Source: Escherichia coli (GTDB lineage Bacteria; Pseudomonadota; Gammaproteobacteria; Enterobacterales; Enterobacteriaceae). From it: 64,000 bases of DNA. Of this stretch, positions 4,129 to 58,318 are shown in pieces. Both the position numbers and the translations under genes were made by a program. Every line of letters begins with the position of its first letter. Position 1 is the stretch's first letter. The stretch lies in assembly GCF_013315695.1 (NCBI RefSeq), contig NZ_CP054353.1. One strand, given 5' to 3'. Below the pieces are notes generated by a model. That model was not told the DNA's origin, did not search any database, and saw only the letters and a program-made list of their open reading frames with translations.

Positions 4129-4298
4129 AATGGCTCACTCAAGCTTGCTCACGATTGATTCCAGTAACAAACCGTATTGTGTAATTATTTCTATAGCAGG
4201 TCGCTATATAGGATTGTATATATCGAATAATTTGAAAATCAAAGAGATAGGTAGATTTTCACTCGAAAGTAGTATTACGTGTAAGTGAGGAGTAATTA

Positions 4299-4312
4299 TT
4301 GTTCGGTATCAA
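4299..4312 (-). promoter_or_regulatory. FNR-type binding site upstream of dmsA (TTGATaccgAACAA on minus strand)
   Basis: Matches TTGAT-N4-ATCAA-like FNR consensus about 170 bp upstream of the dmsA start; dmsABC is FNR-activated (established). Confidence 0.6.
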
Positions 4313-4322
4313 AGGGAGACAA

Positions 4323-4338
4323 AAAAAGCGCCCGCAGG
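4323..4338. repeat. attL core: 16-bp direct repeat aaaaagcgcccgcagg
   Basis: Identical 16-mer at 43150-43165 next to the serS terminator; brackets the prophage with integrase adjacent. Confidence 0.65.
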
Positions 4339-4427
4339 AGATTTAACACACCTTACTCCCCTTGATGATTTACTTATTTTTCAATGACTAAATCAAAACA
4401 AGGGGAGCAAATTAACGCAAATTACAA

Positions 4428-11164: not shown

Positions 11165-11347
11165 CAGAAACACCCCGCGTATGCAGACAATCACCAGTTG
11201 CCAGGTGATATTAATTCGCAACATTCTAACCACATCAGCACGCAACACAAAAACCGCTTGCCAGCGCTCGTCGTGTCAGGTTACATTTCCGCTGCACCTC
11301 ATAAAACGGGTGCCGGGTTTCGCAGCCTGCTGACAACCAAAGCGCAC

Positions 11348-11368
11348 AACCGCGCCAGCGGTTTTTTT
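11348..11368 (+). terminator. intrinsic terminator-like hairpin plus T-run (aaccgc-gcca-gcggtt-ttttt) in repeat copy 1
   Basis: 6-bp GC-rich stem followed by T7, nested in outer symmetry cgcacaa...ttgtgcg. Confidence 0.5.
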
Positions 11369-11547
11369 GTGCGTACTGTATTGCCACGTCTTTTTCGCGT
11401 CAGAATTATGGCGGGGCGTACGGGGCCGACTTCGGTCGGGCCGGGTTCTTTGCTAGCCGGTACTGCGAACCTCGTACGTCTCGCCACCCACAGTTTCGCA
11501 GCTCTGGATGGTGAGTTTTCACAACTTACTAGCAAAGAGGCCACACC

Positions 11548-11769
11548 ATGGCAAACCGCAAGCAACAGCGCGCCCGCGCTGAGCGTCTTCACATCCGCAG
11601 CGAAATCAACCGCAGACTTTTCCGCGCAACACGCGTCGCGCAAATCATGCATATCAACATGCTGCATGAGCGCACGCACGCACTATCAAACCGTTACTGC
11701 GCTGCTGTCTTCAGCTATCTCGCCGAAGATCTGGCAGAACTGCAAAGCCTCATCAACCAGCACCGATAA
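11548..11769 (+). CDS. small basic protein (73 aa, MANRKQQRARAERLHIRSEINRR...), repeat copy 1
   Basis: ATG with AAAGAGG RBS; identical copy at 12377-12598. Confidence 0.5.
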   Translation: MANRKQQRARAERLHIRSEINRRLFRATRVAQIMHINMLHERTHALSNRYCAAVFSYLAEDLAELQSLINQHR

Positions 11770-11837
11770 ACCACATCCGGAAGCTATCCCACACCTGCAC
11801 GCGGGAGGCTTCCGCACGTCTGTTACCGGAGGTTCTC

Positions 11838-12009
11838 ATGAAGAGCGTTAAGGGACTTTCAGATATTCAGGACTTCTTTAACTGGATGTGGGCGGTGGAT
11901 CCCCTGCTGGCTTCCCGCCTGAACAACTGGCACGACTATTACCGCCGCGCCTGTAAACAGGCTGCCCGCAGCGTCACCACATACGGGGCTTTCTCCTTCA
12001 CCGTTGACT
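11838..12009 (+). pseudogene. truncated 5' duplicate (about 57 codons) of the 138-aa gene, broken at the duplication junction
   Basis: Same RBS and first 57 codons as 12667-13083, then reads into repeat copy 2. Confidence 0.55.
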
Positions 12010-12176
12010 ATGCAGACAATCACCAGTTGCCAGGTGATATTAATTCGCAACATTCTAACCACATCAGCACGCAACACAAAAACCGCTTGCCAGCGCTCGT
12101 CGTGTCGGGTTACATTTCCGCTGCACCTCATAAAACGGGTGCCGGGTTTCGCAGCCTGCCGACTAGCAAAGCGCAC

Positions 12177-12197
12177 AACCGCGCCAGCGGTTTTTTT
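12177..12197 (+). terminator. same terminator-like hairpin in repeat copy 2
   Basis: Identical sequence at +829. Confidence 0.5.
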
Positions 12198-12376
12198 GTG
12201 CGTACTGTATTGCCACGTCTTTTTCGCGTCAGAATTATGGCGGGGCGTACGGGGCCGACTTCGGTCGGGCCGGGTTCTTTGCTAGCCGGTACTGCGAACC
12301 TCGTACGTCTCGCCACCCACAGTTTCGCAGCTCTGGATGGTGAGTTTTCACAACTTACTAGCAAAGAGGCCACACC

Positions 12377-20887: not shown

Positions 20888-20905
20888 TGTAGCGGTGTTC
20901 TTACA
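20888..20905. promoter_or_regulatory. Ogr-type late promoter element TGT-N12-ACA (tgtagcggtgttcttaca)
   Basis: Dyad in the divergent P/O intergenic region; shares GTTCTTACAAC with the element at 41115-41132. Confidence 0.6.
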
Positions 20906-25951: not shown

Positions 25952-27889
25952 ATGAGCAAAAAACATTTTGAGTTGATTACCGCCATGAGCCGTACGGAGC
26001 TGGCTGAGAAAGTTAACGAACGTCTGGCGCTGGGCTGGCAGCTTCAGGGCGACGCACAGGTTGCGTCAGAGCCGGGCGTGCCGTGGTATTTGATGCAGGC
26101 CATGACCGGTGATCAGCCCGTCACCGACGAGCCGCAAATTGCTGTGGATGACGAAGGGAACACAATCAACGAACCGGAATACTACTTCGTCATTGCTCTG
26201 GCCGGGCAATCCAACGGCATGGCGTATGGCGAAGGTCTGCCGCTGCCTGAGACATACGATCGCCCCGATCAGCGCATTAAGCAACTGGCACGCCGCAGTA
26301 CTGTCACGCCGGGTGGTGCGTCCTGTAATTACAACGACATTATTCCTGCGGACCACTGCCTGCATGATGTTCAGGATTTGAGTAAGTTTTCACACCCGAA
26401 AGCCAGCGCAGCTCAGTATGGATGCGTGGGGCAGGGATTACATATCGCGAAGAAATTGTTGCCGTTTATTCCGGCGAATGCGGGCATTCTTCTGGTTCCG
26501 TGCTGTCGTGGTGGATCTGCGTTTACTACAGGGGGTGATGGCGCTTTCAGTGAAACAACCGGTGCAACAGAAGCATCGTCTCGTTGGGGGGTCGATAAAC
26601 CGTTATACAAGGATCTACTCACCCGAACAAAAGCCGCACTGAAAACCAACCCTAAAAACATTCTGCTTGCAGTGGTCTGGATGCAGGGCGAGTTTGACTT
26701 AAAACAAACAACGGCATATTCCAACCAGCCAGCGGCGTTTGATGCCATGGTGGCAAAATACCGCTCCGATCTGGCGGGCGTATCAGGTCAGTGCGTTGGT
26801 GGCTCTTCATCATCAGTACCCTGGATTTGTGGTGATACAACTTATTACTGGAAAGAGACATATCCAACCGAGTACGGTGTTGTCTATGGCGCATACAAAA
26901 ACAAGCAGGCTAAAAACATCTTCTTTGTGCCGTTTATGACGGATGAAAACGGTCAGAATGTTGGCACCAACGAGCCAGATGAAGATCCTGATATCACTGA
27001 AATCGACTATTACGGTTCTGGATGGCGCAAAGATAAAACCACATGGACAACGGCAGATCGTAAAACTCACTTTGGCTCATGGGCACGTCGGGGAATTATT
27101 TCAGATCGTCTTGCTACAGCAATAATTGAGCATGCAGGTAAAACGGAAGCACTTGTTTATGGCAGGGTAACGCTCAGTAAAGAGGAAGAGCGCCCGGAAG
27201 AGGAAGATGAACCCATTGTAAAACCCACAGCTGAACAGTCAGTTATACTTTACGACGCTAAAAATGCCTCAGATACCAATTTACAGGCGCTGAACTGGGA
27301 GTTGAAGGATGTCACCCCCTCTCTGATTCAGGAGGGAAGTAATAAGGCGTTGCGTCTTGAGAAAAGCAACAGTGCGAAACCATGGTCATTACTTCATAGT
27401 ATTGCAGCCGAAAAATCAGGACAACTTCTGGAAAAAGGCGGAGAAATTTCCGTTCGCTTCAAAATACCTGAAAACACCTCTCTTGATACAGGAAAAAATA
27501 AGTATGTGTTAGGGCTGTACTGGAAAATAGCGGGATGGCCAGGTGATGGCGGAGAAGGCTATCTGAGTTCTTTTCTTGTTCAGACAGATAAAGCAAACCT
27601 GGATGTTGTTTACCATTACAACAGTAATCAACTGAAAGATATTGGTACATTTGATGAGTTTGATCATGACTGGCATACGCTCGCATTCAGGTTTGAAGGC
27701 GGTAACAGCCTCAGCGTTACACCGGTGCTCGATGGTAAAGATGGTCAGGCGTTTGATCTTGTTAAGTGGACTAATTCAGCTAATGAGGCCAATAAGTTTA
27801 TTTTGACCGATATTACTGGCACAGCTGAAACGTATCCTGTCCTTATTGAGACAATCGAAGTTAAAGCAAACCAGGCAGCAGCGAAATAA
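25952..27889 (+). CDS. sialate O-acetylesterase, NanS-p-like (SGNH/SASA domain with C-terminal lectin-like region)
   Basis: 645 aa; GQSN block (ALAGQSNGMAYGEG); size and domain order match prophage NanS-p esterases as recalled; inserted between lysis and tail genes. Confidence 0.7.
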   Translation: MSKKHFELITAMSRTELAEKVNERLALGWQLQGDAQVASEPGVPWYLMQAMTGDQPVTDEPQIAVDDEGNTINEPEYYFVIALAGQSNGMAYGEGLPLPETYDRPDQRIKQLARRSTVTPGGASCNYNDIIPADHCLHDVQDLSKFSHPKASAAQYGCVGQGLHIAKKLLPFIPANAGILLVPCCRGGSAFTTGGDGAFSETTGATEASSRWGVDKPLYKDLLTRTKAALKTNPKNILLAVVWMQGEFDLKQTTAYSNQPAAFDAMVAKYRSDLAGVSGQCVGGSSSSVPWICGDTTYYWKETYPTEYGVVYGAYKNKQAKNIFFVPFMTDENGQNVGTNEPDEDPDITEIDYYGSGWRKDKTTWTTADRKTHFGSWARRGIISDRLATAIIEHAGKTEALVYGRVTLSKEEERPEEEDEPIVKPTAEQSVILYDAKNASDTNLQALNWELKDVTPSLIQEGSNKALRLEKSNSAKPWSLLHSIAAEKSGQLLEKGGEISVRFKIPENTSLDTGKNKYVLGLYWKIAGWPGDGGEGYLSSFLVQTDKANLDVVYHYNSNQLKDIGTFDEFDHDWHTLAFRFEGGNSLSVTPVLDGKDGQAFDLVKWTNSANEANKFILTDITGTAETYPVLIETIEVKANQAAAK

Positions 27890-27896
27890 TAAAAAA

Positions 27897-27919
27897 CCCC
27901 CTCCGGCATTCGGAGGGGG
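27897..27919. other. strong GC stem-loop (ccccctccg-gcatt-cggaggggg) after the esterase gene
   Basis: 9-bp stem; A-run on the 5' side, so the T-run is on the minus strand. Confidence 0.5.
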
Positions 27920-28189
27920 AGAGAAACTAACCATTAAAAACGAATATCTATAAGCATCTCAATTCTGGCGTTTTACACCATCACACGCAATGCAAAGGAG
28001 CAATGTATGAATTTATTTCAACAGTCCATGTTGTATTTCAGTGCTGCAGTATGCGTCATATGGGTGTGATAAGGCAGACAGAACTTCCGGAACAAAAAAC
28101 AAATAAGGCAGCAGTAAGAAAAGCAGCTGGCGGTACAACTAACCGATCCTGAAATAGCCTGCCATACACAACAAACAGACGGTGTTTTT

Positions 28190-28660
28190 ATGCTGAAAAT
28201 GAACTCATTACGCGAAGCACTGACCAGCAACTGCCGGTGGTGCAAAGCCAATCCGGAAAAATTCACGGTATTCACTGAGTCCGGAGGCATTGAGACCACC
28301 GCAGAAAGACCGTCATTTCTGTATCGCTACAACCTGGTCGTTTTCATCATGGATTTCACGGAAAGCATCGACAACATCATGCTGCCGGTAATGGCGTGGC
28401 TGTACCGCAACCAGCCTGACCTGCTGCTTAATCCGGAGAAGAACAAAAGCATTAAATTTTCGACGGCCATTAACGACGATGACAGCGCCGATATCCTGCT
28501 GGAAATCCCGGTATGGGAACGCGTGATTGTACGCCGCAACGATGACGGCACGGTAACGGCAGAGCATATCGGTGAGCCACCGATAAGCCGGGCACTGGAA
28601 GCATGGCGAGTGGTCTTTGAAGACATGACATGGAAAACCGCAGAAGAGGCCGGGGCATGA
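28190..28660 (+). CDS. tail completion protein, P2 gpR-like
   Basis: 156 aa; MLKMNSLREALT start resembles P2 R; P2 gene order. Confidence 0.8.
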   Translation: MLKMNSLREALTSNCRWCKANPEKFTVFTESGGIETTAERPSFLYRYNLVVFIMDFTESIDNIMLPVMAWLYRNQPDLLLNPEKNKSIKFSTAINDDDSADILLEIPVWERVIVRRNDDGTVTAEHIGEPPISRALEAWRVVFEDMTWKTAEEAGA

Positions 28661-58100: not shown

Positions 58101-58188
58101 GGTGAGGTGTCCGAGTGGCTGAAGGAGCACGCCTGGAAAGTGTGTATACGGCAACGTATCGGGGGTTCGAATCCCCCCCTCACCGCCA
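58101..58188 (+). tRNA. serW: tRNA-Ser (anticodon GGA)
   Basis: 88 nt GGTGAGGTGTCCGAGTGG...GGTTCGAATCCCCCCCTCACCGCCA with long variable arm; anticodon loop cctGGAaag. Confidence 0.92.
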
Positions 58189-58202
58189 TATTCAAAGAAG
58201 AG

Positions 58203-58228
58203 CTCGTACGAAAGTACGAGTTTTTTTT
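58203..58228 (+). terminator. serW intrinsic terminator
   Basis: ctcgtac-gaaa-gtacgag hairpin followed by T8. Confidence 0.7.
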
Positions 58229-58238
58229 CGCATTTTAT

Positions 58239-58318
58239 CTGCCTGTACGGCAGTGAACGGTATAAAAATCGAGTTTTTCTTTCGGTTGGCTTTCTAAGCT
58301 GCCTGTACGGCAGTGAAC
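58239..58318. repeat. two copies of a 20-bp hairpin-forming motif (ctgcctgtacggcagtgaac) 60 bp apart
   Basis: Exact direct repeat in the serW-clpA intergenic region, each able to fold (ctgcc-tgtac-ggcag). Confidence 0.6.

Follow-up and report, generated by a model that had tools for sequence, protein, structure and literature searches.

The 20-codon mini-ORF that lies between the esterase and tail-completion genes of this Escherichia coli prophage is very probably the 5′ stub of a pseudogenized DUF1378 gene, judging from its similarity to intact genes at the same location, and is an unannotated remnant. The finding itself is of little weight, concerning as it does a pseudogene of a known DUF family on which expression of the downstream gene gpR would not depend. 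Positions below are those of the window, the whole stretch of 64,000 nucleotides that was analyzed.

The esterase-gpR gap and its mini-ORF

The surrounding region is a P2-like prophage whose genes run in the order endolysin, Rz-like spanin, embedded Rz1-like spanin, esterase, gap, gpR, gpS-like, V, W, and J. The esterase gene (25952-27889, plus strand) encodes a NanS-p-like sialate O-acetylesterase of 645 aa with DUF1737 (PF08410), SASA (PF03629), and DUF6645 (PF20350) domains and a match to phrog_143 (E=1e-287); its RefSeq name is “DUF6645 domain-containing protein.” Esterases of the NanS-p type are known from Stx phages (PMC10462455). On the other side of the gap, the P2 gpR tail-completion gene (28190-28660, plus strand; PF06891, E=5e-40) is the first backbone gene past the insert. 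Exactly 300 nt separate the esterase stop (27887-27889) from the gpR ATG at 28190. GC content falls from about 55-60% to 41-45% over 26800-28190, and the last third of the esterase gene (27124-27868) does not align to P2-like relatives that match its first half; a swap of the C-terminal (DUF6645) domain is suggested. Elsewhere, the window holds a full-length match to the enterobacterial sRNA STnc130 (4219-4353; 126 bits); a tandem duplication at 11180-12320 (829-bp spacing, at least 300 nt at 99% identity), each copy with an isrK and C4 antisense RNA match (11294-11491 and 12123-12320); and, at 58101-58318, a tRNA-Ser(GGA) followed on the minus strand by two type I-F CRISPR repeats (Rfam CRISPR-DR4) around one 32-nt spacer, which presumably resemble the residual I-F array of E. 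coli chromosomes.

Within the gap, an ATG at 28007-28009 opens 20 hydrophobic codons (MNLFQQSMLYFSAAVCVIWV) that end at a TGA (28067-28069), with a second stop, TAA (28070-28072), directly adjoining. The ATG is 118 nt past the esterase stop and is preceded, with a 6-nt spacer, by the Shine-Dalgarno sequence AAGGAG (27995-28000, plus strand). All of these elements are located as the preliminary description had placed them. AAGGAG followed 4-9 nt later by ATG occurs eight times in the window, an enrichment over shuffled sequence (2.6 ± 1.7), and the start signal of the mini-ORF is of a genuine kind. Its length of 20 codons is not in itself significant, as 86 ORFs that reach 20 aa or more overlap the 6 kb around it.

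The stub matches a single family in each of two profile libraries: DUF1378 (PF07125) in Pfam (E=0.016, 15.8 bits, profile positions 1-19 of 59) and PHROG 494 (phrog_494; E=2.5e-4, 22.1 bits). A local HMM aligns it to positions 1-24. The Pfam score is below the gathering score of 25 bits because the remaining 40 profile positions are missing; intact relatives score 116-124 bits. Among 80 viral contigs retrieved because they encode relatives of the esterase, almost all have a conserved small ORF just 3′ of that gene (e.g., MTFIHQVMLYFCTAVCVLYLLSGGYRAVRDFWRRQIDKRAAEK...), and the intact downstream ORFs match Pfam DUF1378 at E=1e-33 to 2e-36, as well as PHROG 494. Sixty-nine of the esterase loci extend 400 nt or more past the esterase gene; with intact taken to mean at least 54 aa, 67 of these 69 have an intact DUF1378 gene of 54-64 codons that starts 134-151 nt past the esterase stop. 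An intact gene is missing only from the window's own lineage and from L070 (5098-5229), whose 44-aa allele is the sole other shortened DUF1378 among the 69. A candidate second stub 5′ of the esterase gene in lambdoid loci (“MRLFKQVLLYFC”) was rejected: it is a chance resemblance, out of frame, within a 237-aa ORF.

The proteins of the DUF1378 family have 54-64 aa and, judging from sequence, a single transmembrane helix at the N-terminus, an SGGY motif that is invariant, and a basic tail likely to be cytoplasmic; their genes start about 135 nt past those of NanS-p-type esterases. PMC10462455 places the gene between nanS-p and S and lists it as an ORF of unknown function. Neither DUF1378 nor the esterase has a match in NCBIfam or PADLOC. 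In 15 E. coli genomes, intact copies carry the PGAP name “DUF1378 family protein”; PGAP leaves the stub of the window unannotated.

The closest comparisons come from P2-like contigs with the same insert, located by a gpR search. Two of these, L083 and L084 (gpR 92% identical), encode a 55-aa DUF1378, MNLFQQVMLYFSTAVCVLWLLSGGYKAVKNFWNKKPDEAAA[R/K]KSASGSGESNSLN, in which 16 of the first 20 residues are common to the stub; intact DUF1378 in P2-like contigs is 55 aa long in L083/L103 and L084, 54 aa in L085-L088, and 57 aa in L089. The 60-nt stub is 87% identical in DNA to L083/L084, and the 47 nt before it, in which the Shine-Dalgarno sequence lies, 81% (blastn against L084, E=6e-30). The sequence AAAGGAGC[A/G]ATGTATGAAT, which holds the Shine-Dalgarno element, is kept in both relatives, and the element reads as a heritage of the ancestral DUF1378 gene. 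Conservation of the frame in related prophages had been proposed as a check on the mini-ORF; the frame is conserved, and in those relatives it runs for 54-64 codons. The mini-ORF (28007-28069, plus strand) corresponds to DUF1378 codons 1-20, most of the transmembrane helix, closed by a premature TGA where L083/L084 have a TTA leucine codon. In L083 (1703-1782) and L084 (3422-3500), the interval from the DUF1378 stop to gpR also contains a GC-rich hairpin, GACCGGC...GCCGGTC; the window has none. The abundance of 20-codon ORFs might point to a chance ORF in AT-rich intergenic DNA, an explanation to which almost no credence can be given against the specific single-family matches in two libraries, the residues common to syntenic genes, and the blastn match to L084.

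Lesions, distribution, and possible residual function

The whole DUF1378 pseudogene, as delimited by DNA alignments to relatives and by frame-by-frame protein comparison, would occupy 28007-28152 on the plus strand. Alignment to L083/L084 gives TTA>TGA at 28067, with loss of the leucine of codon 21, and TCC>TAA at 28070. Beyond these stops, a 12-nt deletion near 28071-28082 takes out the invariant SGGY region, a 1-nt deletion past the A-run at 28094-28099 shifts the frame, and an in-frame TAA (28115-28117) and further indels follow. The 20-codon length of the ORF is thus a consequence of a premature stop.

Parts of the lost C-terminal region remain legible. In frame 0, NFRNKK matches the NFWNKK of intact genes (p about 0.006), and in another frame (+2) the ancestral tail QKTNKAAVRKAAGGTTNRS can be read to the ancestral stop, TGA, at 28150-28152. 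Comparison of QKTNKAAVRKAAGGTTN, past the frameshift, with the L085 tail KKIDEAAARKSAGGAVN gives a score of 48 against 17.1 ± 3.5 for shuffled sequence, with none of 3000 shuffles as high; this significance holds only against the closer P2-like relatives, as the comparison with lambdoid DUF1378 tails is not significant (p about 0.06). By location the stub belongs with the family, being on the same strand as a NanS-p-type (SASA/DUF6645) esterase gene and just 3′ of it; by integrity of the reading frame it does not, given stops at codons 21, 22, and 37, the deletion over SGGY, and the frameshift. The persistence of NFWNKK and tail remnants in two different frames indicates a DUF1378 descendant rather than a functional member.

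The 49-aa ORF of DAU42298.1 (TPA, Caudoviricetes MAG), equivalent to 28003-28152 of the window, is a frame chimera with its N-terminus out of frame, and only its last 17 or so residues are authentic DUF1378 tail. Automated annotation either skips the stub or calls this chimeric frame.

How widespread is the broken allele? A 321-nt query spanning the gap (27880-28200) is 100% identical to one of 5426 complete E. coli genomes, that of strain MSB1_4I, in which the gap is unannotated, and the 300-nt gap DNA has no match in GenBank phage records. Copies of the truncated allele come from a complete E. coli genome, from IMG/VR and ENA metagenome contigs (one each), and from the TPA record DAU42298.1; its recurrence in four types of record means that it is not an assembly error. 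Exact-pattern scans of viral, genome, and metagenome contigs returned the known copies only, plus one chance match in Paenibacillus. All copies are near-identical and thus represent one near-clonal lineage, so that persistence of the allele is uninformative on selection.

Intact DUF1378 genes are under purifying selection (dN/dS 0.08-0.29). For the stub compared with L084, dN is 0.11 and dS 0.33, values from only 20 codons that have no statistical power. Identity is 0.87 over the stub and 0.70 over the tail; the same gradient separates these regions between intact genes (0.70-0.82 vs. 0.61-0.73), and there is thus no sign of special constraint on the stub.

A plausible course of events is that the leucine codon 21, TTA, became TGA in the window's prophage first, and that the remainder of the gene would then have collected the second stop, the 12-nt deletion, the frameshift, and the third stop. 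With the Shine-Dalgarno sequence and ATG intact, ribosomes probably still load and would make a hydrophobic peptide of 20 residues, which, lacking the SGGY motif and basic tail, is most likely non-functional. Since DUF1378 has been lost here and the esterase gene is intact, DUF1378 is dispensable for keeping the esterase gene intact.

Continued translation or residual function of the stub is possible, as its start signal and 20 codons are intact and 87% identical to those of relatives. A more specific proposal, that truncation has yielded a functional 20-residue membrane micro-peptide, either a shortened active DUF1378 or a neo-functionalized one, could draw on the strong, correctly spaced Shine-Dalgarno sequence and on retention of the most conserved family residues (Q6, MLYF, AVCV). 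We consider it quite improbable: the SGGY motif, invariant in the family, and the entire basic tail are missing, the approximately 14 hydrophobic residues that remain are probably too few for a stable membrane span, the truncated allele is confined to a single near-clonal lineage while nearly all related loci keep the full length, and conservation of the stub is no better than the normal gradient from N-terminus to C-terminus. The earlier suggestion of a “tiny membrane peptide” is therefore apt as to origin, the frame being the transmembrane segment of the DUF1378 family, but not as a description of a dedicated mini-ORF, given a copy cut at codon 21 with further stops, a 12-nt deletion, and a frameshift.

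Transcription through the gap and the opposing terminator

It had been supposed that the gap should contain the promoter of the tail-completion genes. Promoter scans found no sigma-70-like site in the gap on either strand, nor in L036 or L084, and there is no Ogr-type TGT-N12-ACA dyad in 27890-28190; a TGT-N12-ACA match does occur at 20888-20905, where another gap separates the terminase and scaffold genes. Phage P2 itself expresses R and S as part of the PO late operon. In P2-like relatives without the insert (L090-L097), gpR starts 13 nt past the preceding ORF, which places gpR inside an operon and makes a promoter in the gap unexpected. The supposition thus finds no counterpart in the sequence; gpR would be read from the same late transcript, and the stub would have no role in its expression.

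The preliminary description also raised the possibility of a leader peptide. The mini-ORF is short, has a strong Shine-Dalgarno sequence, and precedes an operon segment, an arrangement by which attenuation might control transcription or translation of the tail-completion genes, and yet we regard this as very improbable: there is no plus-strand terminator-like site in 27890-28190, and hence none between the mini-ORF and gpR; plus-strand RNA from 27985-28200 folds no better than shuffles, and in fact less well (z = +1.1); and the peptide has no runs of regulatory codons. The homologues of the ORF are longer protein-coding genes under purifying selection, and no such leader precedes gpR in relatives that lack the insert. 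The mini-ORF is better explained as what is left of a DUF1378 gene.

The one terminator-like site in the gap faces the other way. An intrinsic-terminator-like hairpin on the minus strand at 27891-27919 (stem-loop 27897-27919; fold z = -2.7) has a 9-bp GC-rich stem, a 5-nt loop, and a T6 run adjoining the tandem stops of the esterase gene. On the plus strand, A6 precedes the stem-loop, so that it can act as an intrinsic terminator for the minus strand only. Its position and orientation are kept in 79 of 81 esterase loci (25 of 27 distinct sequences), with stems unrelated in sequence; a plus-strand terminator past the esterase stop is absent from all 81 save one with unrelated downstream sequence.

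Might this terminator mark the end of a small RNA? PasA, of prophage PP2 in EPEC strain E2348/69, is an Hfq-dependent sRNA with a minor 236-nt form that ends at 743264 (Table S6, PMC8550237). The RNA is read from the minus strand in the interval that separates esterase and holin genes, and that end is one base from the esterase stop at 743265. A 2026 preprint likewise places PasA/PasC between the esterase and the holin-lysozyme operon. The terminator beside the esterase stop, conserved in position, is thus the counterpart of a mapped sRNA 3′ end in EPEC; the observation concerns 27891-27919 of the window and positions 2365-2600 of L104.

By analogy, the gap could have been shaped mainly by a minus-strand sRNA gene like PasA/PasC, the stub and the 5′ region of the DUF1378 gene surviving because they overlap its promoter or 5′ end. 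The retention of terminator position and orientation despite unrelated stems, the EPEC coordinates, and the arrangement given in the preprint all speak for such a gene; even so, we think it unlikely. The E2348/69 PasA sequences (85-nt and 236-nt forms), compared by blastn with the window and all loci, matched only themselves, and Rfam gave no family match in the whole window at gathering thresholds and, in the gap at E≤10, only weak matches driven by the terminator hairpin. The scans that found no sigma-70-like promoter on either strand of the gap, L036, or L084 also count against it. Moreover, an sRNA would be compatible with a DUF1378 pseudogene, to which it merely adds a second feature. Given no similarity to PasA and no minus-strand promoter, a positionally conserved convergent terminator is recorded here, and an sRNA is not claimed.

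Two other kinds of element were considered. The anti-sRNAs AsxR and AgvB were rejected, as they lie 3′ of PR′ and antisense to stx, elsewhere than the gap. A type I toxin-antitoxin system is improbable: there is no homology to known toxin families, the stub derives from a gene that is conserved in late operons, and the scans gave no antisense promoter.

Overall, there is a small chance that the stub region is active in one of two ways: the 20-residue peptide may still be made and act in the membrane, or a sequence-divergent, PasA-like convergent sRNA may end at the terminator with its promoter or 5′ end overlapping the stub. If such an sRNA were present in the gap, the esterase-linked niche of prophage sRNAs would extend from lambdoid to P2-like phages.

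Comparison with known systems

The esterase gene, the convergent terminator, and DUF1378 appear from their shared synteny to travel together as one portable cargo module that occurs in two unrelated types of phage backbone: in prophages of the lambdoid and Stx types it precedes the holin gene, and in one P2-like lineage it lies between the spanin genes and gpR, the esterase and DUF1378 (25952-28152 of the window) also being found there in the P2-like contigs L083-L089. The presence of DUF1378 beside the esterase in two unrelated backbones suggests that it is tied to the esterase more than to holin or lysis genes. All 347 GenBank phage records with this esterase bear lambdoid or Stx-type names, and none is named as P2-like.

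In being a cargo module between two backbone genes, absent from the related L090-L097 and of deviant GC content in its 3′ half, the insert resembles phage “morons,” which are independent cargo modules set into late operons; unlike these, the module of the window has no detected promoter of its own, and its only terminator faces the opposite way. At 3396-3488 in L090-L097, which lack the insert, there is a conserved hydrophobic ORF of 30 codons, [V/M]TLFDFIAEHPFWTLIYLLIIAGVIERFAR, that overlaps the Rz1-like stop, ends 13 nt before gpR, and has no PHROG match.

The likeness to PasA/PasC (EcOnc51/52, in EPEC and EHEC) is one of arrangement: a minus-strand intrinsic terminator adjoins the esterase stop and is convergent with the late operon. 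The gap of the window differs in having neither sequence similarity to PasA nor a recognizable promoter. In E2348/69 PP2, conversely, no DUF1378 is annotated or seen in translated frames of the PasA-bearing gap, while the window has a remnant.

DUF1378 of lambdoid and Stx phages (e.g., phage 933W) is homologous to the stub over the N-terminal 20 residues, with only about 55% identity, and shares with it the site past the esterase and convergent hairpin, the strand, and the arrangement of Shine-Dalgarno sequence and ATG. There its neighbors are nanS-p and the holin gene S, and it precedes a pinholin gene, whereas the stub is in a P2-like prophage between spanin genes and gpR, and stops at codon 21. 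Closer still are the P2-like contigs with intact DUF1378 (L083-L089, L103), which have the same backbone as the window (gpR 72-92% identical) and the same insertion site: in these the gene is full length and under purifying selection, and in the window it is broken.
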